NCBI GenBank assembly: GCA_023645945.1
Contig: JALAIB010000018.1
Location: 1-48,384 of the forward strand
DNA length: 48,384 nucleotides
Reading direction: 5' to 3'
Source: Diploschistes diacapsis
Lineage: Eukaryota
Part shown: positions 14,519-42,665 of the stretch, in pieces
How positions within the stretch are numbered: the first letter of the stretch is position 1
Layout: every line of letters starts with the position of its first letter
Program-made: the position numbers and the translations under genes
The notes under the pieces: generated by a model
What the model saw: only the letters and a program-made list of their open reading frames with translations
What the model was told of the DNA's origin: nothing
Database searches by the model: none

Positions 14519-17380
14519 CTGTTGCGTCCACCACCGAGAATCCTGGTTACTATCTGGGCCGTGTGACGATCAATGCGTTCATGGTTCAACAGGGCAAACT
14601 GTAAAATTGACTCTTCGGTCAAGCAGTCTTGCCAATTGATGCCGTACGAGAAAATTGCTATACAGGAAACTATCACAAACTCATTCTAGGAGCACAAAGT
14701 CAGAGTAAAGACAATTGCCCGAGTATAGCAGATAGAAATTGGGGGGCAAAGGGCAACCTGCGACGTTGCGGCGCAAATGGGATCCAGGTCGGTCTAGGAT
14801 GTCCAGAGCGTAACGGTAGGTTTCGGTGGTTGGTTTGACGGATGCTGCCGAGTATGATGGCCTCCTGATCTAAGGATACTGGTGCTCCGAGTGCCCTCTT
14901 CAAGATGGCGTGAACACGAATTCAGGCTAATCTGGCCTACAGATATGCACAGCTGTCAGTATATGCTGAGATCTTCCTCCCAGCTGCTGTACATCTTTTG
15001 ACAACCAATTTCCTCAACTCTAAAGCTAAAGCCTTTCAGCAAGTGGCGAAGGAGTTCGTTCAGGAAGAAATAAGATGCAAGTTATTGTGAAATAAGTGGT
15101 CTCTGTTTCTGCACGTCTAAGGCCCTCCCCAAGCTTTGCAGAATCCATGGCAAAGCAGAGCGCTGATCGTTGAATGAACCTCGGCCACTTTTCCAACCAA
15201 GCCAGACTTGCGATAAGTAAATGGCATATGACATGCATCGGGAGTCAGCGCACCTTGTTGTTTGCTTTGACGTGAAGACGGTCCCTGGATACATTGAGGA
15301 ATGGATTCTTGTGTTGATGGTGGTAGATCAACTGGATATCGATGACACGCCTGTTCCTAGGAGAAGAACATTCCACTATCGCCGTTTCAGCATCAGATCA
15401 GTCAATCGCGTAAAGGATTCTTAAATAATCAAGTTGTGGGCGCCAAGGAATTTTGCGAGTTGCCCTGAAACAAGTGCAGCGTTTCCTGCGACTTCACTCC
15501 TACTCTACTCTGCTACTTTGAAACTTAGTTTCTGTTAGTTTCTATTCTTCGTTATGCTACTTGCGCAGTTAATCAAGAAGGTACCGATAGTGATCCATTC
15601 ATATTGGGAACATGGCAAAACTTCGTTTCATCAGTCACCTCTTTAGGTCAATTGGATTCTTGCGTTGAGTGCTCAATCCATTTGATCATTCCTGAAACTG
15701 ACATGCTATCAAACTTGTAAGAAAATGTTATAAACTCGGGTAACCTGGTTAGGTCGACCGTTGAGGATTGATTGAGGTCTTTCGGCTCTATTCACCTATA
15801 CCAAGAGCGAGGAATAGTGCGAGGTGCCTAGCAAATAATTCAGGCATGCAACTGCCCGAATTGGGCACGATAATGTCAAACTCTCCACCCGTCTACTCCG
15901 GAGTGTTGCGGAGGATGGCCATTGCAAGAATGCTTCTCATCCGACTCACTTCGTACAGACAAGTAAAGTTATGAAGCATGATACTGTATGCTAAAGACGA
16001 GCGTTGTGAGCCCTAGCCACCTCTGAGAGGATTACGATACCGTGGACCACTTGGCCATCAGGTAATTTATGACATCGACAGCTTCAGCGTAAGCAGATGG
16101 TCTTGAGCTTTCGATCTTTACTTGATCCGTCAAGGGAAAACCGTGGCGCTAACTCTACTAGACTTCTGTGTCATTTCTCAAATGGAAGCTCTCGGTGTTC
16201 CCAAATATACCTGATACTCTACCCGCTCGACAATCTGCTTCCATGACTGCGCGGATCCAGAGGACCATGGAAGACTATACGTCAAAGGGAAGCATTGAGT
16301 GAAGCCGGAGGCCGTCATGCAAAGACGTCAGGCCAGAGACGAAGAGATTGGCTTCTATTGCAATCCTTTACTACCATCACAGAACGTTTTAGTCACTGTG
16401 GCAAACCGCAATTACCTTGGTCCTAGGATCTTCGCTCCTCTTTCACCTACTGGCCGTTGTGTTAGAACACTGTATCATGAAAGGCCGGCCAGCTGAGCAC
16501 AAGATATAAAAGTCAGCCTTATACATCCCTCGGCAGATAGACGGTTTAGGGGATCAAGCTTTCCGAAACGAGTAGCAACTGATCATTGATTAGAGTACGG
16601 TCGAAGTGTCCAAGAAGCGTGACTGATGGTTGAACGCACTATGCTAAGTTGATCAGCTTCCTTTGTTAAGATGTAAAGTCAAGAGTCTTGAGACCATATA
16701 CATATCATTTCATCCTCGGAGATTTGCTATCCAAAGGAGCTATGGAGGTGTCTTCATCAGCTCGGGAAAGGAAGAACGGATTATAATTCCAATTATTGTC
16801 ACTAGGAAGCTATCTCCCGTCCTCATATGGCATATACAGACTTCGAAGATATTTCTAGCATGATGGCCAACGAAGATCTTGTATTTCCTAGGGCTGAGCC
16901 CCTGCGGACGCGAGGTAGATCTGCTGCCCAACGCTATTTCAGGAGAAGCCCGATGATGAAGCATGCTGTAGGTCACTCTCTGTGTTGTTTGAATTATGAA
17001 TAGACGTTGCTTGCTATAGAGAGCTTCAAAGCGCTGCAGAAACATGTCAGGTTTGCTGGAAACTTAGAACACGTCCGCTTCGTTTGTTCAAGTTGTCAAA
17101 TTTCCACATGCTAATCTGCATCATATCTTTGTATGTACTCATATGAAAGCCCAATTGCGACAGGTTCATAGATGCGCATCTTCGTTTCATTATGTTGTCA
17201 GCCGTTCAGCTCATGCGAAAGCAAAGGAGCAAACTCTCGGTCCATAGTGTGCAGCAAAGTTGAGCATTGAACAGTAACTAGATCAATGGCTAAATTGGTA
17301 TATACTAAGGCCATCCTCTATAAATGTATTCATGGGCAAGTCTTTGGCACTCTGAGGCGAGAAATACTCTGGATAGCGAT

Positions 17381-19215
17381 ATGGAGGATCAAAGCTCTTC
17401 TACTGCCATGGCAGACAATGGTGGTACCTTGATCGATCCAGCACCGTCTATTCATAACCTGCCGTCAGTGGAGCTTAGCAGTACAGCAATGCCCGCAAAC
17501 AATAACATTCCTGGCCAGAAACACGCCAGAACGTTAACTCCTCAGCAGCAGCAAGAATTGAACGAGCACAACAAGCTCCTCTCGGGCCGAGACAACAGCC
17601 ACGTTGCGGACACCCGCAGAACCGAGAGAAAAACGGCACCAATAGTTTCTGGGGCAGTTCTGACTTCATTTCCTAGAGACTTTTCACAATATGGCTTGCT
17701 TGCTGAGCATTACGCCGAAGACCCGGATTCGCGACTCTTGTTGAACGTTACGCCCCCCTGGTCCGGCTTTATATGTGGATCTCAAGGCTCGGGAAAGAGC
17801 CATACCTTGTCCTGCATATTGGAGAACTCCCTTTACCGCTCGTCAGCATCCAATGTGACAAAGCCACTTGCGGGCATCGTATTCCATTGGGATCGGTTCA
17901 CTTCGTATGGGAGCAAACAGATATGCGAAGCAGCCTATCTGTGCTCTGCTGGTATTCCTATCAACGTGCTGGTGTCGCCCTCAAATCTCAAAAGCATGGA
18001 AGACGCATATAGTAACATTCCAGTGCGCGGCAAAAATGGCAAAAAGCCTGTCGTTGTGCCAATGTACTTTGACGAAAGTCAGCTTGACGTCACTAAGATG
18101 ATGACTATCATGGGCTTGAGGGGAAAGGAGGACGAACTGCCACTGTATATGCAGGTGTGTGTCGCCCTAAGCAAGATTTCCGCGAGCTAACGTATTGAGG
18201 TGGTGATACGGATATTGCGAGAGATGGCCCGAGACCAGCAACGACTCGATTCTCGCGCTAGGCAGGGTATAAACTACAAGAAATTCCTGCATAAGATCGA
18301 GCAGGAAGAGAACCTCAATCCTGGACAAACCGGCCCTTTGAAATTGCGACTCGATAATTTGGGCAGCTTCATGCGAGAGATGAAGCCGGATGAGGATTCC
18401 GACTCTCCAACCCTTATCCCCCCACCAGCACCCCCTGCTCAGCAATCCAAAACCAAGCAGAAACAGACAGGCAAGCCACTCCAACCGCTTGAAAAGCTGA
18501 ACGAGAGGAAGGATCGAAGCCTGACCGAAACGTGGGCCTTTGAAGCTGGGGGGCTGACGATAGTTGATCTAAGTTGTCCTTTCGTGGACGAAAATTTTGC
18601 TTGTGCACTTTTCACGATCTGCTTGCAACTGTTCCTTGAGCGGAGAGGGGATGTGGGCCTCATCGTAGCACTCGACGAAGCCCACAAGGTATGAGTCCTA
18701 CAATTTGATTATCAGTACAACATACCTAACATTACTAGTTTCTAACCGGCTCAACCGGTGCAAACGCTTTCACGGCGGAACTGCTTTACCTTATTCGACA
18801 GCAGCGCCACTTTGCAACCCGCGTGCTCATCGCAACCCAGGAGCCTACATTGTCTCCGCAGCTGCTCGAACTATGTACTTTTACTATTGTACATAGGTTT
18901 AGTAGCCCCAACTGGTTCAAGGCGCTGCAAGGCCACCTCGCGGGGTTATCGGACCTGAACAACATCGCAGATACAGACGAGGACGAAAGCGCCCGGGAGC
19001 TGGGTCAGAAACGTGCGATCACCAGACTGTTCAAGGAGATTGTGAACCTCGAGACTGGTGAAGGGCTCCTCTTCTCTGCGACGGCTATGACAGGTGTTGA
19101 AGTCGACGTTAGAGGTAGACCAATCAGGTCCACTAAGCTTGGTGCACGATATTTCAAAATCCGTACGCGTCAACGCCTGACTACGGATGGAGGACAGAGT
19201 ATAATGGCGGAGTGA
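17381..19215 (+). CDS. P-loop NTPase, HerA/FtsK/VirB4-like; exons 17381-18154, 18200-18688, 18739-19215 (alternative upstream in-frame ATG at 17324)
   Basis: Walker A GSQGSGKSHT, LTIVDLSCP, Walker B IVALDEAHK, IRQQRH, VLIATQEPT, IVHRFSSPNW, GEGLLF, RLTTDGGQS. Introns 18155-18199 (GTGTGT..GCTAAC..GAG) and 18689-18738 (GTATGA..CCTAAC..TAG) join three ORFs in frame. TATAAA at 17319. Confidence 0.9.
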
Positions 19216-20265
19216 GTGTTGGGCTGTATAGAAGCCCAGCAAAGTGGACCGCTCCGGTCTGCCAACAGAGCTTCCACTGGGAGATGAACCGTGGCCGGGT
19301 AAGGGGACAGATACATACATCCCCGAATGATCTCCCAGCCATAGCTACTACGAGGTCTTTTAATACTATGCGTTCATAACACATAGGCCCAGTTGTTGTT
19401 GTAGTTATTGCGAACTTGACGGGAAGGCTGAGGATGCTTGCATGCTGCATTTACATTCTTATCTGTATGTTGATAGATGCTTATTAGACAGTTTTGTGTA
19501 CCTCTGCTACTATCCCATAGATTGCTGTCCTGTATATGGTTGACAACCTTCTTCCCACGCCCGATAGCGACAGATAAGATGCTGTTGAATACTTCGCCAA
19601 TCCTTGTCTCTTTCTTCACAATACTCCAACAGCGCTTCAAACAGAGCATTAGCTCACTGCAAATGGAGATTGTCAATCTATTGTTCCTGAAGGATCTGCA
19701 GCTTTGATTCCTTTCCTCTATTACTTTGCCCCTTTTATCCAGGGTTCCCGATAGGGTATCTTTCCCCTGCCCTTTTCTTACTGCCCCTGACTGTCTGCTT
19801 ACATCATTTCTTCGGCTTACTGCCATCAAAGTCCGATATAGCCGACAGAGGCTGACGTCAAACCGCTAGGCCGTCTTAACCGAGAAGGTGAATTGCGAGC
19901 GAACTGGAAGTCTCCATTCCTTAATGTCATACAAGCGACAGCTCGGTAAAGGGACTTCTACCGGAAGAACGTCATTAGAGAGATGGCAAGAGGAGTGGTG
20001 ATGATGAGATTGATGAGATATTTTGGTAAGGTTGTTCTTGACCGCGGTAAGCTATGGGTGCCAGTGATTCTTTTGTCTATTTCTTCAGACTTGGAAAATC
20101 ATAAAGACTTCGGGCAAAGTCTCTCTGTTTCTAGAAGTTGGCGTGCCTGAATTGTTCACGAGGAAGCCCGCGACATCCGTATGATGACATAAACCTACCC
20201 TGTAATTACAGCAGCGAGATAATAAACCATTATTTTGTTTTTATATCCTTGGCTCGGGCTCAAAG

Positions 20266-22071
20266 ATGTACAAGATGTCATTAGACGGCCCTGACTCTGA
20301 ACAGAATGCAATCCAGAAGAAGCGCAACCCAGACAACCGCTTCAGTTTGACCCGAGTTCACACCGGGCAGTATCTCGATGCGGCGTCAATCTATCATCCC
20401 GAAGGGGAACGAGAGAAAATAGCGAGACGAGGCAGCAGCGAGTACAACGAAGACGAAACCACTGAAGAAGATGGAGAAGATATCGTGGAGGTCGCCGAGG
20501 TGCGAGACGGTATTCCGGACGAGAGAGATGTGGAAAAGGGCGACAACGCGCTAGAAAAGAAGAAGACTTCAAAAAGCGCCCGCAGCGCGCGCAGTGCCCG
20601 AGATCCAAATGAGGTATGTCTTATCACTGTTAGAGTCAGAAGACGCAACTAACGAATTCCCAAGGTAACATGGGATTCGCCCTCCGACCCTAGAAACCCC
20701 AAAAATTGGCCCAAACGCAGGAAATGGATCGCCACATTTGTCATCTCCTCCTTCACGCTCATTTCTCCCCTATCCTCCACCATAGTATCGCCTTCCATAC
20801 AAGCCATCTCCCAAGAATTCAACATCACAAACGAAGTACTCCAGCAGATGGTCCTTTCCGTGTTCATCCTCGCCTACGCCATTGGACCCTTATTCATCGG
20901 CCCCCTCTCCGAAATCTTCGGAAGGGTCCGAGTCCTGCAGCTCGCGAATCTGTTCTTCCTAGTGTTCAACACCGCGTGCGGAGGTTGCACGTCGGGCGGG
21001 CAAATGATCGCATTCCGCTTCCTCTCCGGCCTGGGCGGATCCGCGCCCCTAGCCATAGGCGGCGGTGTGCTAGGCGACGCCTGGTCCGCCGACGAGCGCG
21101 GGGCTGCCATATCCGTGTATTCGCTGATGCCTCTCCTCGGGCCCGCGATAGGCCCCATCGCCGGATCCTGGATCACGGAGCGCACGACGTGGCGCTGGGG
21201 CTTCTACAGCGTCTCCATCGCCTGCGCCCTCATCCAGCTCAATGGCCTCTTCTTCCTGCAGGAAACCTACGTGCCCAAGATCCTCAGCGACAAGGCCGCC
21301 CGCCTGCGCAAAGAAACGGGGAACCCGGACCTCAAGACCAGGATGGAGCGCACAGGCGACAAGCACTTCCGCAACGTCCTCTCCGTCGCCATGCTCCGCC
21401 CCTTCAAGCTGCTCGGCACCCAGCCCATCGTCCAGTTTCTCGCCGTCTACATGGCTTTCATCTACGGCCTCATGTACCTCGTCCTTGCGACTTTCACCCC
21501 GCTCTGGACAGGCCCCTACGGCGAACCCCTCGGCATCGCGGGCCTGAACTACTTAGCCCTCGGCCTCGGCTTCTGGGCCGGCGCCCAGGTCTGCGCGCCC
21601 TTGAACGACCGTATTTATCGCTACCTAAAAAACACCCGCGGCGAGGGGAAGGGCAGGCCGGAGTTCCGCGTACCACTCATGTTCCCTGGCGCGCTTCTGA
21701 TCCCTACAGGGCTTCTGATCTACGGCTGGACAGCGCAGCACCACACGCATTGGATCGCGCCCGATATCGGCTGCGTTGTCTTCAGCGCGGGCTGCATTGT
21801 GTGTTTCCAGTGCATCCAGACGTACCTAGTCGATGCGTACACGCGGTACGCGGCCAGCGCCGTGGCGGCGGCGACGGTGCTGAGGAGTTTGTTCGGGTTC
21901 GGCTTCCCGCTGTTTGCACCGTACATGTATGCGAGCTTGGATTATGGGTGGGGCAATACGCTGCTGGCGTTTTTAGGGGTTGGGTTGGGCGTGCCGGCGC
22001 CGATTATGCTGTGGTACTTTGGGCAGAAGCTGAGGGAGAGAAGTAAATTTGCGGCGGGGGGAGGGGACTAG
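20266..22071 (+). CDS. MFS multidrug/polyamine transporter, DHA1 family; exons 20266-20613, 20665-22071
   Basis: Intron 20614-20664 (GTATGT..ACTAAC..AAG) gives VTWDSPSDPRNPKNW; motif A PLSEIFGR; RFLSGLGGSAPL; PLLGPAIGPIAG; WRW; ETYVP; PEFRVP; YLVDAY..YAASA; RSLFGFGFPLF; multiple hydrophobic segments. Confidence 0.95.
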
Positions 22072-23595
22072 AGTTGGTCGAGGGCGAATGGGAAGCTGGA
22101 AGTGCTGTTTGGGAATGGGCGGTGAGTTGGAGTAGCTTTGATGCGGCATCTAGCAGGCACGGCGTATCTGGCACTGTGTTGCACGGAAATCAGGCGTTCT
22201 TCGAAGCAGTGAGAGCTTCGGGAAACCCCGGCGCTCCAATACGCTTGATGGCGTAAAGCCATTGGATTTGTTGCTCGATGGAATAGGCAGCTGTTTCGGA
22301 GCTTCCATAAGTCCAAGCATATTTGTTACATGTAATAGGATTATGGGGATGTCACGTCTTACGGTAGAGCATGGAGCCTGGTACAGAGGGCTCGTTGCAA
22401 AGTCGGCTGTGGCTCGAAAAAAATCTGCTCCTAGCTTTGGATACGGGAGAGTTGCAGTGCAGCATACTCAAGGATTGCCTATGTTGCGTATATAAAGCTT
22501 TCAATAGGAAGAGAGTTGGAAACAAAGTTGTGGTAAAGGGATGCCCGGTAGATTGAACCGTGGATGAAAAGAAGAGGTTCAACATCTAGCGTATCAAGCC
22601 CTCCCTGGACCAAGATTGGTATGGGAAGGGAGAGAACGCTAAAAGTTGATCTGGCTGACAGGAATTTATCTCTCCCGAAACGTTGCCGCTGCAACGTGCC
22701 CGCAACGTAAAATTCAGTTCGCTAGCTTCAATCCCGGACTCCCAGGACACGCACACTCAGCTTACAGGATTAAAACAGCAATGTTGCAGACAGTGATGGA
22801 GGCTCTTGTCAAACTCTTGTGAGCTTATGCAATTCCCAATCCCGAACGCCGATTATAGCTCTCACATCAGCTCAGCCTCTGTTTTACGGTTCGCGCTGAT
22901 GGACAGGCCGTTGAAATGGGTGTCCATCATGGATAGAAGCCTTGCTTGCATGCAAAGGTGACCGGGAAACCCCACAACGATTGGCAAGATAGCTTATCAA
23001 CATTTAGGTTACATTACTGCACACCAATCAGCGCTAACCTTTGTCCTCGTCGATCAGGATATCGCGCTTCCCGCCGGAAGGCTCAGAAGGCGCATGTTAT
23101 CAGGTAGAGAGGGCTCATTGCAGACACCCTCAAAGACGATGCTTACAGCCGTTCGTCAATGTGCTGTAGCCTCGGAGACCGATGATGCTTACAAGTTGGT
23201 GCTCTGTTCTCCGCAAACATTGCAACCCACATATTGCCTATGCGGTCAACGAATGAAACGTTTATACATGGTACCAGTAGTAGCCTGTTTAGTGCTATAT
23301 TAAAGTCAGATATGTCTTCGTACTTCTCCTACTCTTTCGAAGCGACTTGATCATCATAGTACAAAACGTGGATCTCGAAGATCACAATAGAACCGTATAC
23401 CCTACATGATTGTGTAAGAAAGAACTCAGCAGCGACGCTCTCTGGGCTTTGAATTCACTCAACTAACTTTGATAGTCTCAGACCAAAGTTTTCTCGCTTA
23501 CCCGCCGACTCTAGGTACTTTACAGAGAGGAATCTTATTCTAAAGCTCTTCACGGAGATTTGTCTTTGGCGGAGAAGCCAATTGAGAAAGAAGAT

Positions 23596-26500
23596 ATGGC
23601 TCTGTATGGCTGGGATATGGTTACTGTTGGAGCTTGCGAAGGCTTCCTAACCCCGCTCATTCAGCAACCTTGTTACAATGGCTTCCTACCAAACGGTGTT
23701 AACACTTCTGAGCAACACGCTCATGATGTACCAATATCCTCAATTCAACACCTTAACTATGTGGATGAGACATACCTTGGCAGCTCCGTGGGAAGTGAGA
23801 GTAGTTCCAATGATCAACAGCACGATGAGACTGTGGACAACGGCTCGCCCTTAAGATGTCTCTGCTGTTATGAAGGGTGCAACAAGTCTTTCTCAAGGCC
23901 TAGTGAACTCAGACGTCACAAGAAGATCATTCACAGTGCTTCAACCGACGTTGTCTGGCATTGCGGTTGTTGTCTCAATTCGAATCGAAAGTTCACTGCT
24001 GGGCGAAAAGATGGCGTTGTGCAGCACCTCAAGAAATCACATGGCTTGTGTAAATTGACCAAAGATTTACTGCTTTGCTCTTCCTGCTTTAGCAGGGAGA
24101 AATCGACCCTCCAAATTTCTCCTAAGAAAGATAGGGCAAAGTTGTTGTTCGGTTATCCCTCTTGTCTTAGGAAGCATCAGGAACTGGAGCATTGCTCATC
24201 AGTAGTTTACAAGTCTCCAGGTACAAGAGACGAGCCTTCATTCCAAAGATTACTTCATGGCTGATCCTCTAAATAGAATTATCCAGGCGTCACAGTCAGC
24301 CCGCTTTGTCTGCTTCTGCTCAAGATTACCACGACTGCACACCATCACAGAGAACCTCGCAGAAACAAGCTAACCGCAAGGAAAGGAAGCATTCAGTATC
24401 CTACAACGGATTGGGGTTCAGGGCCAGGACGCTGTCAAGTTGTGCTTGTCAAGACAGCACAAGGTCATCGCCAAGAATGTATCTATCTGACAAGGACGGA
24501 CCCTGGTCCCCTTGCACTTCGGCATTACAGATGACAAGCTCAGCGGAAGCCTCTACATTCAGCGATACCTCTCTTGCCAGCACCGTCTCTTTGGTGAATG
24601 ATACATCTCCTGCCAGCAGTGTCTCTCTATTAAGTGATATCTCTCCAATCAGCGATAACGTTGGTAACGGGTGGTTCGAGGTGGGATCGCAGTTCTACCA
24701 ACCGCCTCTACTGATGTGCGGATCGGACAACGTATCCGAGTTTCAAAACGAGAATCGCCAGAAAGGCTTCTTCTACAATGGCCTTCTGACCGGCAGCCTT
24801 GCGGCTGATTTATTGAACAACTCCCCTGCAGTGACTGGTATAATGGCTCAAACAATTGGGAATTTTTCACCAACATATTTCTGGCTTCTTCTCAAAGGTA
24901 AAACAGTGTATCCAAGCTGTCAACATAGAGCTAATTCCGTAGCAGACATCCTTTGGGCCGAAACAATCTTAGACTTGCCGGCCCAACTGCGCAAAGGGCC
25001 AGAGCATGCTTCTATAAAATATTTCCCGCGGATTAGGCTGCTTGTACTACAAGGGCTCGAGTCCAGCGTCGAAAAAGCCTATGACATGTTCAAAAACCCG
25101 GAAGCCCTGGTCTTCATCCGTGCGAGGGAAGCCTTCAAAAGAATGAGCGCACTGAAGATCAATAAAGTGCTGCATCGGGCTCCGGCCGCTTGTGCAACAG
25201 CACGCTCTGATAATAACGCTCCTGTAGAGCCACCGGTTACACTGATTTTTTCCTTGGACTCCGAAATAGATGCCACTCTTATCCAGGCGTGGGAGACTAA
25301 CGTGGTACCAGCCCTTCCTGAACTTTTGCAGCCGACAGTGGGAGATGACTATTCGGTGGCTCTGCTACGGGAAGGCCCAAGCAGGAAGGACTCTAACCCC
25401 TTTGTCCGCATCCAAAGCCCAAACAAGCCATGTTCACGCAATCAGCAATGCATTCAGAAAGATATCTGGACGCTGCTTACAAATTATCAAGGAGCCCTTC
25501 CAGTTGTAAAGTTTTACAAAGGCAAGACGCTTGACCTCGTAGATGAGGTACGGAATCTTTACGAAGATGAAGATGAAGACCTGGAGCATTTCCCACATCA
25601 CAAATCCTATTGGGAGCGGCCTGGCATGGGCGGTAGTGTTGGTATACTTGGCGACCGAAGCCTTTCCGGCACCTTTGGAGGCTATGTCGTGATAGACCAG
25701 AAGCTGCACATCCTTGCAACATACCACATGGTTGAAGAGGCGCGAACCCATGTCATCCAGACAGATGGCTCACACGGTCCCGGCTCTGTCAGGCTTACTT
25801 CACCATCACTAGCTGATGTTGATGAGGTGAACAAATTCTTAAAGCACTCTTTACGCTCGGGCGATGCGTGGATTCGAGATATTCTTTCGACTGGTAACGA
25901 TTACGTGGTGCCAAGAGAAGCAGAGTCCCTTTTTAACTTAATAGCCGAGCGAGAATTTGGGGAAGATATTGAAGTTCAGTTAACCCTTTTGGAAGATGTG
26001 GTAAAGACAAGCGAGGAATATGTGATTGGAAATCTTGTTTACTGGAAGGTGTGGCCTTACCGACAATATTCTGGCTCCCCTTTCGCGCCGGCAGCTGCAG
26101 AATCGGATTTGAATTGTTTGAGAATGGATTGGTGTCTCTTCGAAATAACGAACAACAACCGGCTGGGGCAAAACAGACATCGCTATCGCCAACTTCCAGG
26201 AGGGAATGGGCTGGACTACACAGCAGCCGATACTACAACAGATACTATGGGTCTAGGGAATTTGTGCTCGCAGGCTTGCTACTTGCAACCTGGTAGTCCG
26301 GCACATTACGTTGGAAGGAAGAGCGGTCTGCGGAGGGGAAGGATCAATCCAACAAGAGAAGTCGTCAGCATTGGAGGCAGGGTTACCCGCGAATGGTGCT
26401 TCATCATCGAGGGTCGCAGGCTGAGTGGCGAAGACCTGACCGGCGATTCCGGAGCCTGGATTTTGAAAGATGGCAGTAATGAAGCAATGGCCATGATCCA

Positions 26501-26999
26501 TGCCTCCGGCAGCAACGGGCCGCTCGTTACTCCTTTATTGGACATCTTCCAAGATATTCGAGATGTAACTGGTGCCAGTGACGTCCATGTCCCCAGACCA
26601 CCACCCGGCCCACAGGCGTCCAACCTGTGTGAGTTCGCCAACAAAGAGAAACAAGCCAAACGGTACGATGTCAAAACCCTGCCGAAACCCAGCCGACTCC
26701 GCCTGCGCTTGATGCTGAAGCGCGGGGTCGAAGAAATTAACCTTCTCCATCCAAAGGACGAATCGCCTCGACTGCCCAACCTCACGAGCCCCACTTCCTC
26801 CTCGAATTCTGATTCAGGATATTCAGTCGCTACACCATCAGACGGGACAACCGAATACGCTACACCATTAGACGGGACAACCGAATACGCGAGTAATATC
26901 AGTCTACCTATTCGGACAAAGAACATCACCTCTGCACCGATCAGGACTTTGGAAGAGGTCCAGGCGCAGGAACCTGTCTACGCCATTGCTACTTCCTAG
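23596..26999 (+). CDS. C2H2 zinc-finger / chymotrypsin-fold serine protease (Ssy5/Nal1-like) fusion protein, ~1100 aa; exons 23596-24220, 24277-24897, 24943(or 24946)-26999
   Basis: Fingers: CCYEGCNKSFSRPSELRRHKKIIH, WHCGCC..RKDGVVQHLKKSH, and a looser third CSSC..CLRKHQELEH. Phase-1 intron 24221-24276 (GTACAA..GCTGAT..TAG) joins in frame to ORF 24306-26999. Protease motifs: GGSVG..GTFGGYV, ATYHMV (His), MDWCLFEI (Asp), GRKSGLRRGRI, GDSGAWIL (Ser), VTPLLDIFQDI. Confidence 0.85.
26828..26890 (+). repeat. 30-bp in-frame tandem duplication (ATPSDGTTEY / ATPLDGTTEY) in the protease C-terminal tail
   Basis: cgctacaccatcagacgggacaaccgaata / cgctacaccattagacgggacaaccgaata, one mismatch. Confidence 0.95.
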
Positions 27000-28359: not shown

Positions 28360-29985
28360 TCACGCAATCCAGAACCACATCCTTTGCAGAAAGTTCTTCG
28401 GCTCCACAACGGGCCACGTCGGTTCCAGCCGATCGATCTCCGCCTTTCCGCTCCACAGGTCCATGTCCTGCACCTTTACAAACTTCGTCCCGTGGACGAT
28501 CTTGTAGCCCAGAAACAGCGCCAGGAAAATCGGGATGTCGATATACGGCGGCAGGAACGTCCTCGCGCTGAATCTCCCGGGGAAGAAGCAGTCGAAGCCG
28601 TTGAACAGCGCGACCAGGCTGGAGAAGCCGAGTGCGAACCACGCCAGAAAAGGCTGCAGCGGGGACTTGAACGGCAGCTCGTCGCGGTCCATGCCGTTGT
28701 GCCGCAGCGCCCCGTGGAAGCGCAGGTACGTGACGGCGATGGTGCCCCAAACGACCAACGTGCTGACGGCGCTGACGTTGGCGAACCAGAAGAAGACCTG
28801 CACGGCCGTGCCGGCGCCGGCGTTGAGGAACACGAGGCAGCTCAGCAGCGCGGTCGCGGCAACGCAGGCGTACGGCACGCCGAAGCGCTCGAAGCGCAGG
28901 GCTGCGGGAGCCTTGCCGTCCGAGGCCGCAGCGTACAGGATGCGGGTGGAGGAGTAAAAGAAGGAGTTGCCGGCGGACCAGGCGGACGTGAGGACGACGG
29001 CGTTGAGCACGGACGGCAGGGCCGCGATGCCGGCGTTCTGGACCGCGACGACGAAGGGGCTGGCGGCCGCGCCGGGCGAGGAGGCGTCGATGGCGTCGAG
29101 CAGGCGCGGGTCGTTGGCCGAGACGCAGAGACCGACCAGCAGGATGGCGAGCACGTAGAAGATCAGGATGCGCCAGAAGACGCGGCGCACGGCTTTGGGG
29201 ACGTTGCGTCGTGGGTTCTCCGTCTCGCCTGCTGCTACGACGACCATTTCGCTGCCGCCGTACGAAAAGGTCGCTTGCACGAAGACCTTCCAGAAGGCTA
29301 GGAAGCGGCCCAGTGCTCCGTCCTCGAGGTACTCCAGCATCGGCCCGGGCACGTCCCAGTAGCGGAAGCCGGTCGCCTGTTGGTCCGGTCCCCCGCCGCA
29401 GGTGATGACCAGCATGAGGAGCAGCAGCCCGACGATGGCGGTCAGCTTGACGGCGCCGAACCCGAACTCGACCTCGCCGTAGATGCGCACGGGGAAGAGA
29501 TTGACAAGGACCATGGGCACGAACAGGATCGCGATCCACGCCACCGTCGGCACAGCATTGGGCCAGTAGCCGATCACCACGGCCGCGGCGCTGATCTCGA
29601 TCGGCACCCCTATAGCAAACTGATACCAGTAGTTCCAGCCCAGCGTGAAGCCGAGCGCCTCGTCGACGTAGCGCGCGGCGAAGACGGGCGTCGAGCCGGG
29701 CAGCGGCAGGTACGCGGCCATTTCGCCGAGCGAATTGATGACGCAGTACAGATTGAAGCCCGTGATCGCGTACGCGAGGAACGCGGAGAGCGGGCCCGCG
29801 AGCGATAGCACTTGCCCACTGCCGACGAAGAGGCCCGTGCCGATGGCGCCGGAGAGGGCAAGGAACTGCACGTGTCGGGCTTTGAGGGAGCGGTGTAGGG
29901 TACCGACATTTTTGCTGGGGGTGATGCCATCTTTGGCGTATGTTTCCGTGGCGGGGGCCTCGATGTCTTTGGCTTCAATTTCCAT
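28360..29985 (-). CDS. Amino-acid permease, APC superfamily YAT family (proline/dicarboxylic amino-acid permease-like), 541 aa, intronless
   Basis: LKARHVQFLALSGAIGTGLFVGSG, SLGEMA, GFTLGWNYW, YGEVEF, GFRYW, FSYGGSE, AGETENPRRNVPKAVRRVFWRILIFYV, SPFVVA, SAWSAGNSFFY, LPFKSPLQP; about 12 hydrophobic segments. Confidence 0.96.
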   Translation of the reverse strand: MEIEAKDIEAPATETYAKDGITPSKNVGTLHRSLKARHVQFLALSGAIGTGLFVGSGQVLSLAGPLSAFLAYAITGFNLYCVINSLGEMAAYLPLPGSTPVFAARYVDEALGFTLGWNYWYQFAIGVPIEISAAAVVIGYWPNAVPTVAWIAILFVPMVLVNLFPVRIYGEVEFGFGAVKLTAIVGLLLLMLVITCGGGPDQQATGFRYWDVPGPMLEYLEDGALGRFLAFWKVFVQATFSYGGSEMVVVAAGETENPRRNVPKAVRRVFWRILIFYVLAILLVGLCVSANDPRLLDAIDASSPGAAASPFVVAVQNAGIAALPSVLNAVVLTSAWSAGNSFFYSSTRILYAAASDGKAPAALRFERFGVPYACVAATALLSCLVFLNAGAGTAVQVFFWFANVSAVSTLVVWGTIAVTYLRFHGALRHNGMDRDELPFKSPLQPFLAWFALGFSSLVALFNGFDCFFPGRFSARTFLPPYIDIPIFLALFLGYKIVHGTKFVKVQDMDLWSGKAEIDRLEPTWPVVEPKNFLQRMWFWIA

Positions 29986-30294
29986 TCTTTCTAGGATGTG
30001 CTGCGTGAATAGACCTTGTAGCTGATCTCGGTGACCCCCAGGTTCATCCTAACAACCGAAGGGGCAGATGAACACGTCAAGTTTTTCTATGGAACATTCT
30101 CATAAAATTCTTTCCCACAGCGAAGCCTTTTGGTTCCTGCAGGCTTTGTCCGGACCAGTCTAACTGCGCCGATCGACATACAGAGCGGGGGTATTGATCT
30201 ACGAATCCCTCCCTTTCGTGATGAGTGTCTTCAGAGCCAAGAAACACTCCAAATCTTGTCCAAGGTATAGCATAAACCCTGGAGTTGACTGATG

Positions 30295-30683: not shown

Positions 30684-31765
30684 CTAATTCAAAGAACGAT
30701 GCCAAGGGCGATCGGGTTCATCCGTTGGCAGAAAAACTCTGCTACCAGTCAACATTTCTATATCTTGAAATATCCGTCGGGTTGGCGTGATGACAGAAAC
30801 GTCCGTTTGATCGCCGTCACGCCTCCTGCCTGTCGAGATTTGCTGGCTCACTATTGCGCCCGCTTTGTTGAAGACCCAGGCTCCTGAGTCCCCAGCCCGA
30901 CCGAATGTTTTATCCACGAATCTTGTATCCGACGTGGTTCCGACAACTGCTATCTCGATAGACACCGAGTCCATCGACGGGCCAGCCATTCGCTTCATAG
31001 TCCATTCTATGAACTTTACCGGTGGAGACTCCCGAACTTCTTCCACGCAAGACAACCCATTCATCCACGTCCAGACTATCAGTCGCATAGGTCGCAGTCC
31101 CCGGAGTTAAGACATCCGCATAATCATCGGGTCGGTTCATGAATGGGAGGTCCTGCAATTCCAGCGTATAATTCTTTCTGAAGTTCTTATCCGCCACCTC
31201 AACGACCGACCCGTCCATCATATGCCCGAACCTACTTATGCGGTAGCCTGATGAGGCGATTGTTTGCCCGATGGGCCCTTGCTTAGAGTCTGGCATTTTG
31301 AGCTCAGACTTCATCTGTTCTTTCTCCCGCTGGCTATCCTTTAAAATTCTTGCGTCGAAGGTATCGGAAAGCCGTCATTTTCTTCTTGTTTAGCCTTGGG
31401 CGCAGTAACTGCCGTTAGTAATCGGTTCAATTCCTTAGTCAGAAAAGTTTTAGTTGTGTCCCAGTCCTCGTGTGAAGGGGAAGTCATGAGCGTGCTTTCT
31501 TTCATTAGCAGACTTTTGCGGTTGTAAAGATAACGCGTTATTGAAATCTGGCGTCCCCTCTTGCTTCGTGCCGTGTGACGTGATGACGAGCTATAAATGC
31601 TGGCCGAATTGGCTCGGTCAGGTTCTCCTGCAAACCTATGAAGCCGCCCATAGTACCTGTGCCTCTCGCGCTACCGTAGATACTAATACTCTCCGGCATC
31701 TCTTTCAGCTCGTATGGGAAGGTTCGGTGGTGAAGAATACTGTAAATCTCCATAATTGAACTCAA
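30684..31765 (-). pseudogene. Frameshifted pseudogene of a chymotrypsin-fold (Ssy5/Nal1-like) serine protease
   Basis: Motifs in correct order over several frames: GTGTMGGFIGL, FIARHHV (His), MTSPSHED, IGQTIASSGYR, MMDGSVVEV (Asp position), VLRGRSSGVSTGKV, FGRAGDSGAWVF (Ser), ITPTRRIFQDIEMLTG. Confidence 0.8.
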
Positions 31766-35200: not shown

Positions 35201-38200
35201 GAAGCACGTGGTATTTCCGATCTTTCCCTGTTCTCCTCTCCTGTTATGGGCGAATCTACCTGATCAAAGGGCGGTGGAATAGGGCAAGCAAGGTCAGGAC
35301 TAGGTGGGGATTCTATAACGGAGGGCTCTGTAAAGCTTTGAGGAGTCGGCGGAATGTGGCTGGTGGGAACCTGGTGTGTGGGTATCGGTAGCGTAGATGT
35401 TTCCGGACTCCAAGGCGAAGAAGAATCTGCGCCTATTGGTGGCGTATTCGAAGCTGAATCTGAAGGCTTTCGAGACTTCTTGGGGGCCTGTGATGACAAA
35501 GCGGTCAATCACTTACACTCCAGAAACGCAAAAAATGCATGGAAGAGATTCAATTTCCTAACGACGATAGGTACATTATCTGATCATGGGCCTTTAAGCC
35601 CGTTCAGCGTACATTCAGCTCCCTCAACAGACCTGCTATCATCCAAAGCATACGGTCGGAAGGGATAAAGAAATCGTAAGAAAAAAAAGTTCAATCTACC
35701 TTATCGCCGCCCAGTCCCCTTAATTTGCTTCTTCCCTTCGAAAAGAAACCTTTTGTCGCGCTGCCAGCTTTACCACCGAAAACTCCGGCCGTATGAATCA
35801 AGTCTTTGCCCTTTTGAGACGTCGTCTTTCCTGCTCCTGGTGGGAAGGAAGACTTCAATACTTGCGACTGCAGAGGACGTTGTGAACCAGAGTTTGGGTT
35901 GGACGAAGCTTGAATAGGTCTGGCGTTTGGTCCAAAACAGCCGCCGTTGCGTATCAAATCCGAATGCTCTGGTAGGGTGCTGATGGTTGCTTGTATCCAG
36001 TCTGCCAACCCAGTATTCATGTTGGCGAACTGCGTCCTCGTAGCATCGTATGTACGAAGTCTTTCGTCGACGTCTTTAATTGCCATTATCTCCCGGAAAG
36101 CCGGAATTTTAGCTTGTTGAGACGACTGAGGTGGAGTTTCGCTCGGCACTGTTTCCTGTGAAGGTTCAACAAAGGCTGGATATTCTGATCGGAAGCTGTC
36201 GCGCTGTCCAGGCACATCATAGGCCGACTCCGCTGGACCCTGTGGTAGCTGCTTGTTAAGGTCAGGCATGCTACTGGATGATGGAGTATGCTCGTGTGCT
36301 ACTGCAACCGGCGGACGAGGTAGCGGTGACTCGGCAGTAATCTCATTTCTCAGATTGTTTGCCGCAGTGTCCGATGCTTGGGACGGATTATTTTGGGAAG
36401 TGGCCTCTGCTGGGCCTTCCCAGGAAAACTTGTGTGACATCCTTCGTGGTTGTTGAGGCATTAACGTTTCTCCGGTTTGACTGGAGTAGGATGATGCGTC
36501 TTCCGGTTGGTCCTTCCTGGACTGTACTTCGTTCGGCACTGCTTGGTGCCCTTGATTACCAGAGAATTGTCGCTGATGGAGTGGCTGTGGGTGAGGCTGC
36601 ATCGGATGTGATGTGTTTTGCGCTGGCTGGAACTGGCTTTTTTGCACTGGAGGTGAACCGGCGGGAAGAGAACCTAGCTCGCTCGCCTTTCGACTCGATT
36701 CGCCACCTTCGGGGGCAGCGTTCCAGTAACTCTCATACTCGCTTGGAAGGAACATACTTTCGTGCGCACGAGCTTGACTTGGAGAATCCTGGTTGTGTAC
36801 CGGTGATTCGGATACTTGATTGAAACTCTCCACTTGAGGACTAAGCTCTCGCACCAACTCTTTCCTCAGCCGATCACTTTCCAGGTCGTTCGGACTGCTT
36901 TCGGTACTCATATCGTCGTATGCCCTTGTCTTCTCCAGCTGGGGGAGATCTTTGAGATTCCCTTGTTTGGCTCTCTGGTTAAGCGGTGTAATTGGAGCAA
37001 AATACTCTTCATTGCCTTCTCTATCTGAAGTCTCGGACTTCATGTACGTAGGTGTCGGGACAATGCTTGACGGAGCGTCAGACTCGCTACGAGGGAGCGG
37101 AAGTCTCTGTGCTTCGGGACGCATTGCCGATCCTTTTGTCGGAATTGATCGAGGCTCTTCAAGCTTAGCCGTTGGTTGACCGTCGTTGTCGTTGGGTTCG
37201 GGCATGAAGCCAACGGCGGTGGCAAGCGCACCGGCAAGAGCTGTACGGGCTGCTGCCGCTGCGGCAAAAGGATCGTTTGCTCCTGGGGTTGTGGTTTCGG
37301 ACTCGTGCTTAGGCTGCTGGCCCGGAACATTCGACAGGTATGAAGGCCAAGCTCCAGGAAGCTGGGGCCTGAAGCTCTGCTGGGTGTCGAGATTAGGTCG
37401 TTGCGATACGTCGGCCTTCTCTCGCAACGAAGATTCGGAGCCCTTGCGGCTATTGCTTGCGCTGTCCAGCTTGTCCACTAGATCACGCACCCTTCCCTTT
37501 GTAGGAGAACCAGCGCGGCTGGGAGAATTCGGCTCTTCATGCGCTACCCTATTGCTAGTAGAATTGGTATTATATGAGGCGGTAGTAGGTGTAATCGTTT
37601 CGAGCTCAGCTTCCTGTGGTGACTGTAACTGTCGATTGACTTCAACGTTCGGCGTTCTCGCAGGGCTGTTGTCTGGACTGGGCGTGCTAATATTGCGTCG
37701 GTGGCCTTGCTTCAATGCTTGTAAAGATTCTCTGGAAGCTGTTCGCTCTCCAACCACAGCCCAGGACGCGACTGCAATCCCTGGTCGTGGTGTAGTTGGA
37801 GGCTCCTCGGGTATGGAAGTTATTGAAGGTATATCCTTTTTGGGCGGAGCGACTGCACCACTCGTATTACGGCTGATGATCGGGCTGATATCATTCGTGC
37901 TTTCGCTGTTGCTTCTGTCAAGGTTGGACCCAGATGCTGACGAGGGCGTAGGAGGTATTTGCGAGTCAAAAGCTTGATTGACAGCTGATCGGAAACCCAA
38001 AGATGGCTCATGATGTAGGGAAGAATTGGGTGATGGATTCGTAATTTTGGAATCGGGTTCTGCCGGTTCCGCTCTCGTTGGCTGCGAAGGCTTCGCTAAA
38101 GCTTCGGGAATTGTGTCAAATTCAATGGGCGTCTGGGAAACTGGTTCTATCTTAGCAGGCCCAGCTTTCACTTCGGCTCCTCCGGAAACAGAGAGTGACT

Positions 38201-39341
38201 CTGTTCGTCCCTCTCCGGCTTCTGTATCTCCAGGCAACGACATGAATGAATCTCCAAACCCTTGCCCGAAACCTTCGAAGCCACCAATTTCGGGCAAGAC
38301 TAGGCTGTCCTTTGGTCCCGCAGGTTTGATGCTCGGCTTCGTGTTGGTCGCCACCAGCAATCCTTCTATACCGTGCTCGCTTTTCCGCTCAGCCACAGAC
38401 TCAAGACCTTGCTTTTTCTGCTTTCTCTCGTTATCACTAGCATTGGCTGGCGAAGGTTCCGGAGCTTGAATACTATCCATGCTTGGCCTGGAAGACTCTT
38501 GTGAGAGGCGCTCCCTTTCCTTCTTTCCTTTCATGCGAGCATAAATATCCGCAGGTCGAATAATTGTAGGGGTAGAAACATTTTGCTGAGATGTGCCATG
38601 GGTTTGAGAGCCACCCAAAGGCATGTTCGTCTGCGGCGGTGCTATTGACCCAGGCTGACCTCTATCTGACTGACTAAGGCTACTCTTTCGCGGTGGGCGG
38701 GCTTGTAGTGGTTGGGGAGCCGCAGAAGGGTACGAAAATTCAAGCTGCTGAGGATTAGCTGCAGATGAGCTCGTCATGGATTGTGACCGGCTGCTGTCGC
38801 TCCAGGGAGCTCGGTTGGGAATGCCTTGACCGCTTGTGGATGGAGCTTGCTCGAAGCTCGGTTGAGCCTGTTGCTGCATTCCATGAGCATCGGAAGGCGC
38901 GCGTGGTCTGTTTGGAGTCGGAAAGGGAGTCGCGCGACCTCTATCCACCAGCGGCTGGGTGAACGATGGGTTAGAAGGTCCTGAAAAGCCTCGACGATCG
39001 TCACCTCTTCCAAATGAGTTTGTTCTTTGCCGATCGGACTGCTGAAACGGTGGTTCCGGTTGCCCTAGTGGACGAGTGTCTTGGATTTGCTGCGGAGGAA
39101 ACGGTTGCACTTGTTGCGGCGGAACGTTGCTCATACCAGCAGCACCTTTGCCGGCTTGCCTTAATCCTGTAGGCTTTGGCGGAGGCTCTGGCTCGTCGTC
39201 ATATCCACCATCATACTCTCCGTATTCGTCTGCCTCTCCCCAATCATCACCATCGTATGTGTAGGACTTTGCTTCCACCCATCTCTTAGTCTTTGCTCGG
39301 TTGACGTTTGTCTTCCAATTCGTTGCCCCGCCAGAACTCAT
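32285..39341 (-). CDS. Large intrinsically disordered conserved fungal protein with FYV8-like N-terminus, ~2225 aa; exons 39341-35700, 35487-33943, 33775-32285
   Basis: N-terminal WKTNVNRAKTKRWVEAKSYTYDGDDW; conserved islets ESDRLRKELVREL, FLPSEYESYW, IPAFREIMAI, GKDLIHTAGVFGGKAG; C-terminal EIVMSSTAYPGQEWRP. Phase-0 introns 35699-35488 (GTAGAT..ATTGAC..CAG) and 33942-33776 (GTAAGT..ACTAAC..CAG) join three long ORFs in frame. Confidence 0.82.
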
Positions 39342-40282
39342 TGTGCTTGCAACTCAGTGATTACTTCGAGACGTAAGCAGACCGGTCTAGGTTCTGGATG
39401 AAGGAGGTTGACAGTCTGCTTATCGGGTAGCTTGCACCAGGCGTCAAATCATGGGAAAGCCAACATCGCTTCTACCAATGCTGGAACTCAGGTGCTTGAG
39501 CTTCTCAATTCCAACTTCTTGCGACTAGCTCCATTGTATTGGAATACGACAAAGCTTTTCAATAGTAAATGGATCAGACTATGATAACGCCGCAACAAAA
39601 GAAAGTGGAAATTGATCGGCAGAAGGTGAGCAGGTTTAGGTTCGGAGCCAAGGACAGAGACGTGAGGCGATCTTTTTTACTGCCCTTGAACTGGCGCGAT
39701 GGGCAATCTGCACAGCCACATTGGACCTTCCCCCTCGGACGTGTTCTCGCCGTATTCCCAGATTAGACTGAGTGCAGTGCTTTAAATAGAGATTGTTTAT
39801 CGCTCTACTAATTCTCTCTGAGCCCACGTACCGATTGAAAGACGTTGTCTCTTTTGAGTGCTCTATACAACTTGTATCGAGACGATGTTTCTATGGGGGT
39901 GTATGTCACTGAGTGGCACGGCCTGACAGCTGTCAAAGTTGGGCCGTAAATTTCGAATGACCACTGACTTGATCGTCATCGTATCTTGTTGCGGGTCGAG
40001 ATATTCCCTACTACGACATCTCTAGTAAGCAAAACCTACAATACCTCCACCAATATCCTGCTTAAGATGTAAGATGGCGGCCTCAAACTTCGGGCAAGGG
40101 GGGACTCCTTTGATTCTACCGAGGCTCTTTCAATGCTCTGCTAGATATCTTGACACTAGAATTAAGTATGTACATAAACTTAAGTAAAGATTATCGATAC
40201 CGTCCAATTCCGCAGTGACCCGCAGCCAGGACGAGCTATTAGCCTCAGGCTTCGGTGAGCCGTAGCTCTATTATAAAGTCCA

Positions 40283-42665
40283 TCAAATCATTCCACCCAT
40301 TGGCATCCCTCCTCTACCGCCCCTTCCAGGCCCCCGGCCATCTCTTCCCGCCGGTAGTTCAAAGTCTGGATTGTTTACCAGTAGGAAATCTCTTTGCTGC
40401 TGCGGCGGTGGTCCTCGATTGGGCACGCCGCCCGTTGCGTATCCCCGGTGCTCAGCTTGCCATTGCGGATTAACTCCTCGCTCGGAGATAGACGTGAAAT
40501 TGCTGTTCTCGCTGGATGGTCCGTCCTGGACAGAATCGTATGAAGGAGTGGTCTGAAGCGGGCGCGGTTGTGTGTCATGAACATACGGGTCTCCCATTTG
40601 TCCTCCGGGCATGAGGACGGTCGGTATATTTGGCCGAGGTGCTTGGTCCACGAATCGGGGGTCTACATCTTCGTAATAATCGTCGCTAGACATTTGAGCC
40701 TTCGAAGGAGCAGGAACCGAAGACTCATGGATTTTTGGTGGCGATCTCCGATCAGCCACAGGCGTCCCAGTTGTCCGTGGAGGGGTTGCTGTTCGAGCGG
40801 GTCCATCTTCCCAGGCGGTTCTTGGCGGTACGTAGCTGTTGCTGTTAGCTTGGATAGCTGAGTAGCTGTTTGGGCGGACTTGCTCCTGTTGCGAGCTGTA
40901 TGCGCCGGAGATGTGAGAGTCCAGCTGCTCGGCTTCCCTACTCCGCTGAAGACCGACTAAGCCCTGAACTTCGCTGTCGCTGTCCCTCAACGGTTGCATT
41001 TGCATTGGAATTCCAAAGGTCGGAGAAGGCGGGTTCGCCGGACTACCGGTATGCTCGTCCATCTCGATGGCCTGTCCGATCACGGCTGGCTCATGCTCCA
41101 GTTGTTGCGGTGGATGATGGATTGGCAGAGGTGGAGGAGATTCAGCTCTACCGAAACGGCCTTCGGGCGGAGTTGGCTGACGTGCACCATAGCCATAGGC
41201 GGCATTGTAAGCTCCCGGAGCCGAAGGTGGTCCCGGGGATGGCTGGCGGCCGTAGCCTGGTGCAGATGGGGGCCCTGGAGATTGTCGTCTTCCATAGCCT
41301 GGTGCAGATGGAGGGCCGGGCGATTGATGTCTCCCATAGGGACCGGGGCCTGCATATGCAGCATTGTACGATCCGGGTGGCAGCGGGCCTTGTCTGCCAG
41401 GCGGTGGCTGCCCATAGGGGTTGCTGTAGCCAGGAGGCGGACCTCGTCCCCTGCCCATCATTTCTCCTGCCATCATGCCAGCTCCGGCGCCTGCAGCCAT
41501 CGTTCCCATGGGCATGCCGCCGCGGCCGCCCGGCCCCCCAGGTCCTCCTCTTCCATAGCCGCGAGCCGGAAATCCTCCTCTCCCTCTACCTCTGTGACCC
41601 ATCGACTCGTTGGAGGGTCGTCTTTGCGCATATTCTGCCTCATCTGCTGAGATCAGTGTTCCCGATGATACAAGAGGAGTTCCGTCCTCGTTTCTCAAGC
41701 CATTGTTAAGACCACCTCTCCCCATCAGCGGTGGCAGATTGCTTCTTGCTGCTCCCGGCCCGTATCGTTCCATACCGTCCAGTTCCATACTAGGTCTGAC
41801 GGTAGTAGAGCCGCTCACGCCAGTACCCGTCCGCGAGTAAGCGTTCAATGGCGTTCGGTCATCCTCACCGGCCGAGGACTTGTTCTCGAACGTTGCAAAT
41901 GCAGGCAAGTTATTTGCGCCCGGAGCGCCATTAACCATGGGGGCACTTGGTTGCTGCGACAAGGGTGGTGGTGAGCTGACCGGTTCTGATGGAGCGTTCT
42001 GGCGATGGTAGAAATTCTCCCCACTCATTTCTGCATTCTCGGCTATCCTCTTCTTCCTTGCCTTCCTGCTCACTATGGTCCTTCTCATAGCACAGGTCAA
42101 CACGCCCGATATCACAATTAGTATGAAGGCTGCGAGGACCACGTAACTACCCCATGCGAGATGTGGGGCGAAAAGGAGGACGTCAACGAGGAAGGCCAAA
42201 AGTGTTATAAGTACAGTTGGAATCATGAGAATAATAAGGCCCAGCAGGTAACGCGAGGAGTGTGCTGCGGTGTGCACATGCGACACAATGGCCAGAACCA
42301 AACATACGAGTGAAAGAAAGGCAGCGACCGGGTGAACAACGAGGAGGTCGGAAAGGGAAAGTCGAGCGTTCCCGGGCAGGCCGAGGAAGTCATTACTGTT
42401 TCCTGCGAAATCGTCTCGTCAGAACCAAAGCGCTGCGCGCTTTGCTGTCTTCAGAACTTCGGGGACACGATTGCATACCTGTTGAGTATCCAACCTTTAT
42501 GCCGCTGCACTCGCCCGACTGACACAGTCCGAACACGCCATAGTCGGTCCCTCCGAGTGAAGCGAGAGGAATGGCACGAACGATGGGTGTTGAAATGACC
42601 GACAGCAATAACAGAACGAAAGCTGCAAACAAGAGAATGGTGAGGGGTGTTGCCGGCCTCAGCAT
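40283..42665 (-). CDS. palI: pH-response membrane protein PalI/Rim9 (SUR7/PalI family); exons 42665-42479, 42402-40884, 40835-40283
   Basis: MLRPATPLTILLFAAFVLLLLSVISTP, YGVFGLC..C..IKVGY, LLVVHPVAAFL, HSSRYLL, LLAFLVDVLLFAPHLAWG, CAMRRTIVSRKARKKRIAENAEMSG, then a long G/P-rich tail. Intron 42478-42403 (GTATGC..CTGAC..CAG); probable GC-AG intron 40883-40836. Confidence 0.92.

Follow-up and report, generated by a model that had tools for sequence, protein, structure and literature searches.

Positions 23596-26999 on the plus strand of contig JALAIB010000018.1, from the lichen fungus Diploschistes diacapsis, carry the reading frame of a zinc-finger module followed closely by that of a serine protease, which raises the question of whether two neighbouring proteins are encoded here or a single one. 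The contig belongs to a metagenome-assembled genome and was analysed over its whole length of 48,384 bases, referred to below as the window. The first open reading frame (ORF) runs from stop to stop over 23515-24264, with its first ATG at 23596 and an in-frame TAG directly upstream (23512-23514), and the second, of 908 codons, spans 24273-26999 and ends with a TAG at 26997-26999. Only 9 nucleotides (nt) separate the end of the finger ORF from the opening of the protease ORF, nothing lies between the two, and the 1.5 kb upstream of the ATG at 23596 is free of long ORFs. Judged from the sequence, 23596-26999 is very probably one three-exon gene joining fingers to protease, and its mature predicted product is an intracellular protein of 1099 amino acids (aa). 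Exon 1 (23596-24220, 625 nt) comprises the start codon, an 85-aa Ser/acidic N-terminus and the three-finger module; exon 2 (24277-24897) encodes a Ser-rich (18% Ser), probably disordered linker with a basic cluster, RKERK; and exon 3 (24946-26999) encodes a small alpha/beta domain, a core resembling rice NAL1, a tail and the stop codon. The chain would run from the Ser/acidic N-terminus through three zinc fingers and a disordered linker of ~200 aa that includes the basic cluster, and from there through the small alpha/beta domain, a NAL1-like ATP-binding-type domain and a chymotrypsin-fold serine protease to a disordered tail.

A single finger-protease gene is the best reading of the locus, as the same arrangement recurs among relatives of the protease. 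A HMMER scan of 1.84 billion representatives yielded 272 relatives at E<=0.001, including 126 at E<=1e-30, and the core that they share corresponds to residues 320-780 of the exon-2/3 translation. The original prediction had stated that homologues never carrying the fingers would speak against it. According to alignment and motif scan, 17 of the 19 homologues of at least 1000 aa have the module, N-terminal in each, and so does the shorter homologue P0105; the model of the Thelotrema orthologue P0163 is without it. When exon 1 was compared with 151 protease homologues by phmmer, 16 matched at E<0.05, namely 15 proteins of 1027-1318 aa and P0105 (830 aa); in all 16, the matched region precedes the core. 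The spliced product is also co-linear with the long homologues, with the fingers at about residues 85-160 and the core from about residue 515. Moreover, a module profile built from 17 homologues, with the window left out, matched exon 1 in one stretch covering 103/124 positions (E 4.2e-20, 68.3 bits); the next best among the 1166 ORFs of the window reached E ~1, and no other ORF matched. A generic multi-finger protein scored at most 14.5 bits per stretch against this profile, and generic C2H2 similarity was rejected as an explanation of the finger match on this comparison (68 bits in one stretch versus <=14.5). Word-based searches with exon 1, which are silent on protease-free modules, returned one generic zinc-finger protein (E 0.066) among longer proteins and only an ORF call of the same organism among proteins of near length.

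The three C2H2 fingers originally predicted are present as a three-finger module, in which only finger 1 is canonical. Finger 1 (23863-23934; C90-x4-C95-x12-H108-x4-H113 in exon 1 numbering) matches Pfam zf-C2H2 with E 5e-4 and 20.8 bits, below the cut-off of 25.2, and its residues C90, H108 and H113 are invariant in an alignment of 19 sequences. Finger 2 (23962-24042; C123-x2-C126-x17-H144-x4-H149) is a family-typical CGCC knuckle with a long spacer, in which C123, G124, C126 and H149 are invariant and H144 nearly so in the same alignment. Finger 3 (24076-24192; C161-x2-C164-x29-H194-x4-H199) is non-canonical and carries an insertion relative to the homologues, and H199 is nearly invariant. 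This composition follows the family pattern of a canonical finger, a CGCC knuckle separated from HL..H by a spacer of 16-19 residues, and a third non-canonical finger. The classical tandem pattern C-x2-4-C-x12-H-x3-5-H is fitted by finger 1 only, the spacers of fingers 2 and 3 being x17 and x29. In a structural model of the homologue P0078, all three fingers fold as beta-beta-alpha units, with a predicted local distance difference test (pLDDT) score of 82-93.

The two frames are joined by a predicted intron at 24221-24276, for which coordinates, length and phase agree with the original prediction. Intron 1 is 56 nt long and of phase 1 (CAG/GTACAA..CTGAT..TAG/AA); its removal joins the two frames in frame through the junction codon g/aa (Glu), and the TGA that ends the finger ORF (24262-24264) falls inside it. 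An in-frame join is not special by itself, because 116 GT..AG pairs in the scanned ranges also yield an open product. Only 24221-24276, however, has an exonic CAG together with a length of 48-56 nt and a CTRAY branch site at 12 nt from the AG. Two further probable introns in the window look alike (50 and 51 nt, with branch-to-AG distances of 9 and 12 nt), as does a second intron within the gene itself. This second intron (24898-24945; 48 nt, phase 1, in frame; GTAAAA..CTAAT..CAG) had been overlooked, so that the fused chain stands at a length of 1099 aa instead of the 1115 aa that the original prediction implied. At the level of sequence, intron 2 is confirmed by the orthologue of Thelotrema lepadinum, P0163. 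With the intron removed, the two proteins align without a gap across the junction; in addition, the ORF piece P0164 breaks at the same residue, and the N-termini of 71 of 129 short homologues project within ~40 residues of the site, supporting that the intron is real. The same 48 nt are spliced out in the NCBI model P0003 (KAI4156393.1), and a coding role for this segment was ruled out by the Thelotrema alignment. Intron positions in other relatives were inferred from ORF pieces only. A scan of metagenome DNA with an alignment of close relatives matched 328 stretches, of which 0 were confirmed.

The predicted protease has the fold and the catalytic residues of clan PA. An AlphaFold2 model built on the core alignment, to which the residue numbers given below as model numbers refer, reached a pLDDT of 87.7 and a predicted template modelling score (pTM) of 0.88, and its check with Foldseek gave the chymotrypsin two-barrel fold that had been proposed. 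The protease domain was placed at 25614-26600 (model 149-473) by superposition on Streptomyces griseus protease B (SGPB). The catalytic His (ATYHMV, 25725-25727), Asp (MDWCLF, 26127-26129) and Ser (GDSGAW, 26448-26450) are intact, as had been claimed, and follow one another in the order of the clan; they correspond to His184, Asp318 and Ser425 of the alignment, each invariant in 124/124 sequences, and the only other invariant columns are three glycines and one Asn. A ~100-aa insertion of four helices (model 183-282) lies between the His and the Asp. These features make it likely that the product is an active serine protease. Among 63 Foldseek matches at E<=0.001, structures of rice NAL1 came first (E 2e-10), followed by alpha-lytic protease and the Streptomyces griseus proteases. 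In VIA-align, 738 of 993 chains gave Z>=8; the model superposed on NAL1 with Z 20.3 and a root-mean-square deviation (rmsd) of 4.6 A over 304 residues (model 32-478 on NAL1 91-449) and on SGPB (3sgb_E) with Z 17.4 and an rmsd of 2.4 A over 177/185 residues (model 149-473). The fold matches also include the protease domain of FAM111A (Z 12.0), a protein that acts at replication forks. In a profile search of PDB sequences the GDSGAW of the family aligned with the GDSG of NAL1 (E 0.003), and the single protein as query found nothing below E 0.97 there.

The alpha/beta segment ahead of the protease had been described as pro-domain-like. This description does not hold, because the segment (25269-25535; model 32-120, pLDDT 95-97) superposes in the model on the ATP-binding domain of NAL1 (limits as given in PMC12012508) and is taken here as its counterpart. 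In the account of that structure, residues 89-172 form the ATP-binding domain and 184-458 the protease, with the triad H234, D291 and S385, and NAL1 works as an ATP-binding hexameric cage that hydrolyses a separate substrate, the transcription factor FZP (PMC12012508). The model of the fungal core shows the same order of an ATP-binding-type domain followed by the protease, with both domains covered in the superposition, and NAL1 (PDB 8hau, 8pmg, 7y77) is the best structural match. The two proteins differ in that their identity is 14% and that the fungal one has the ~100-aa helical insertion, the N-terminal finger module, the long linker and the tail. At E<=1 no match to Pfam Nal1_C (PF25819) was found in the window protein, and one of the 33 homologues scanned, P0123, has a sub-threshold match (18.8 versus 26.1 bits).

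Ssy5 (MEROPS S64) and NAL1-type proteases had originally been named as users of this fold, and NAL1 is the nearest solved relative. By its sequence the window protein stays below the Pfam Peptidase_S64 (PF08192) cut-off of 23.6 bits: its match scores 9.7 bits (E 0.36) and is confined to positions 583-687 of the 692 in the profile; two of the 33 scanned homologues, P0006 (28.4 bits) and P0078 (25.0 bits), pass the cut-off. Ssy5, the protease of the yeast SPS amino-acid sensor whose targets Stp1 and Stp2 are C2H2 factors, nevertheless resembles the predicted protein as an intracellular chymotrypsin-fold protease with a large N-terminal non-catalytic part, and weak profile similarity is seen around the catalytic Ser. 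Ssy5 is reported to autoprocess between its pro-domain and catalytic domain and to activate the transcription factors Stp1 and Stp2 as part of an SPS-type sensor (PMC4985261, PMC4557415, PMC5567314). The available text of an S64 survey calls the Ssy5 peptidases 'single domain proteins' and makes no mention of zinc (PMC5567314), whereas the window protein has its fingers in cis. SltB of Aspergillus nidulans, compared here by description only, is likewise an Ssy5-like serine protease, specific to Pezizomycotina, whose long N-terminal region is non-catalytic; it autoproteolyses and cuts the C2H2 factor SltA into an active 32-kDa form (PMC4985261, PMC4557415). Unlike the predicted protein, SltB carries a pseudokinase and no fingers, and its substrate SltA is encoded by a separate gene; neither the window protein nor any of the 33 scanned homologues gave a kinase-like Pfam match.

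The bacterial S1E proteases, SGPB and alpha-lytic protease, superpose with the protease domain almost end to end, but they are secreted, single-domain enzymes with a cleaved pro-region, their identity is <=16%, and they are without fingers, ATP-binding-type domain or helical insertion. In MYRF and LexA a DNA-binding part is freed or inactivated by proteolysis in the same chain, by catalytic folds that are unrelated. Regulatory clan-PA proteases that process transcription regulators are already known. No description of this architecture was found in the literature full text, subscription journals and supplements lying outside the search, and the statement that no characterised fungal protein is known to have it could be upheld on that basis. 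In databases the family members are named 'hypothetical protein', once 'C2H2-type domain-containing protein', and the ESM Atlas returned only an unnamed Ascomycota cluster; the finger-protease design is most likely widespread but unstudied in fungi. The 928-aa homologue P0127 has a HET (heterokaryon incompatibility) domain C-terminal to its protease part (E 3e-33), so the protease core occurs in other fusions too.

The regions between and behind the folded parts were compared with the model of P0078, in which fingers, a disordered linker, an extra alpha/beta domain, the core and a disordered tail follow one another. The linker equivalent has a pLDDT of ~30. The last ~30 linker residues of the window protein align with the Thelotrema orthologue, and no conserved cleavage motif was seen in the linker in the homologue alignment. 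The small alpha/beta domain at the start of exon 3 (24946-25238) is conserved in short and long homologues, and its equivalent in P0078 (residues 335-427) is folded (pLDDT 63-92). The C-terminal tail, which ends with the stop codon (26601-26999), is modelled as disordered in P0078, and the motifs KRY, LMLKRG, SP.PSL and PIRTLEE are conserved in it among close relatives. In the P0078 model 421 of 1128 residues fall below pLDDT 50 and the pTM is 0.61, more than the core by itself would be expected to give, a hint that its folded parts may have defined mutual positions. A complex prediction of the finger module with the core scored 0.00; it was run without alignments, and the partner was poorly folded.

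Several observations weigh against a fused gene encoding a finger-bearing regulator. The NCBI model KAI4156393.1 (P0003; 745 aa, 24714-26999) starts at an internal ATG within exon 2, has no fingers, and omits the finger exon together with 145 open codons. Log-odds of codon usage, with three coding stretches of the window as training set, do not single out the proposed frame in exon 1 or in the linker, and the donors of both introns, GTACAA and GTAAAA, are without the G at +5 of the usual donor consensus. The closest annotated orthologue, P0163 of Thelotrema lepadinum (MCJ1332158.1; 988 aa; identity 41.6% by tblastn and 43% in the alignment), has a 278-aa N-terminus without fingers, and the other four nearest relatives are all short forms. 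In addition, sequence-specific DNA binding by the module is uncertain, because only one of its fingers is canonical. The first of these points would follow if the locus held two genes, one for a three-finger protein (23596-24264, 222 aa) and one for a protease beginning at an internal ATG (24477, or 24714 according to NCBI), with the in-frame intron as a coincidence. The 116 GT..AG pairs able to join the frames, the non-consensus donor GTACAA and the lack of codon-usage backing for a coding linker are consistent with this arrangement, and ORF callers list the parts separately, as P0166 (232 aa) and P0162 (840 aa). It is nonetheless improbable, since the same module stands N-terminal of this protease family in 17 of 19 long homologues and a terminator, a promoter and a 5' untranslated region would have to fit into at most 213-450 nt. 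The protease ORF is moreover open for 145 codons above the NCBI ATG, exactly up to the acceptor of intron 1, for which we estimate a chance of ~1e-3 (3/64 stops per codon). A separate finger protein from NCBI was not found by exact look-up and near-length search, which returned only an ORF call from another assembly.

The weight of the short forms depends on how they arose. In one cluster at 90% identity the same protein measures 1165 aa where the contig has 4466 or 5099 bases, whereas a 9486-base contig yields it in two pieces (113 and 788 aa) and a 71,874-base contig as 641 aa; the two shortest contigs are inferred from their size to be transcripts. ORF calling on intron-bearing DNA therefore truncates the gene, and the short homologues are at least partly truncations of this kind. 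In a FastTree phylogeny of the core, the finger-bearing forms are scattered (13 changes for 14 rows) and no more clustered than shuffled labels, and they often adjoin near-identical short forms. A loss of the fingers would be another way to account for the Thelotrema model without fingers and for the four other short relatives: the lineage may have given up its fingers, leaving in Diploschistes an intact-looking exon that is no longer spliced to the protease. We regard such a relic as very improbable, even more so than two genes, as the finger exon has an open frame of 208 codons counted from its ATG and retains every conserved Cys/His ligand, and both splice signals are intact; besides, short forms from ORF callers are no evidence of loss, and the Thelotrema model is itself a prediction. 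Current annotations, including the NCBI model and many of the ORF-called relatives, probably miss the finger exon, and domain surveys therefore report such proteases as single-domain.

Gene anatomy, protease fold, triad conservation and the repeated occurrence of fingers plus protease are the established part of the case, and the best explanation of the whole, a fused gene whose active regulatory protease releases its own finger module, is given a probability of roughly 45%. By analogy with Ssy5, SltB and NAL1, which all cut transcription regulators, the protease would be active and regulatory, with the finger module as a 'substrate' built into the same chain. Its cleavage of the linker, either in cis or from one copy to another within an oligomer, would liberate a ~25-45 kDa fragment in which the fingers keep the basic cluster for nuclear entry. 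Activity and self-processing are proposed because SltB cuts both itself and SltA, Ssy5 activates Stp1/Stp2 and NAL1 hydrolyses FZP; self-release as the working mechanism is a tentative proposal, somewhat short of an even chance.

The gene may also be fused without its fingers ever being released, the module serving as an address or regulatory handle while a NAL1-like protease, which may bind ATP and form oligomers, degrades other transcription regulators in trans, at chromatin or at a partner. The non-canonical fingers 2 and 3 are as compatible with tethering to protein or nucleic acid as with a classical transcription factor, the homologue alignment shows no conserved cleavage motif in the linker, and FAM111A is among the fold matches. 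The best structural match, NAL1, is also described as a hexameric cage acting on a separate substrate, FZP (PMC12012508). On the other hand, both characterised fungal relatives, Ssy5 and SltB, are reported to autoprocess (PMC4985261), and the ~200-aa disordered linker beside the protease is an obvious substrate. Fusion without release is rather unlikely, though well ahead of the two-gene and relic alternatives. Self-release, the preferred mechanism, could be extended to the whole Pezizomycotina family, with its 272 clusters (50% identity, E<=0.001), almost all of which bear the name 'hypothetical'. These proteins would then be latent self-processing regulators, a 'Rosetta-stone' fusion of the Ssy5-Stp1/2 and SltB-SltA pairs with a NAL1-like ATP-gated core, and their database entries would be mostly 5'-truncated. 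So broad a generalisation is speculative, and we consider it doubtful.

The surroundings of the gene include a second member of the same protease family, shorter and divergent, located 3.7 kb downstream on the opposite strand (30687-31753). The family profile matched its ORF 31106-30687 (E 2e-7), GDSGAW included, and its ORF 31374-30913 (E 0.013); either introns or decay have broken its reading frame into several ORFs, and it has no Pfam match. Between the two protease genes, and convergent with the finger-protease gene, lies an amino-acid permease gene on the minus strand (28363-30048; Pfam AA_permease, E 1.6e-129). In yeast, the Ssy5 pathway controls permease genes. Elsewhere the window encodes a P-loop ATPase in three ORF pieces (17324-19215, +), an MFS transporter (20206-22071, +; E 1e-44), a SUR7/PalI-family protein (40286-42418, -), an aquaporin-type MIP protein (43531-44466, -) and an ABC1 atypical kinase (46235-47887, +). 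Several large ORFs of the contig are without a Pfam match, such as that at 35694-39353 (1220 aa).

In summary, Ssy5, SltB and NAL1, the three proteases of this superfamily that have been studied, all use cleavage to turn transcription regulators on or off. If the finger-protease fusion is true, it would provide a compact and genetically tractable case of regulator control by cutting; a large family of fungal proteins now named 'hypothetical' would gain a function, and the agronomically important NAL1 fold would be linked to fungal signalling.

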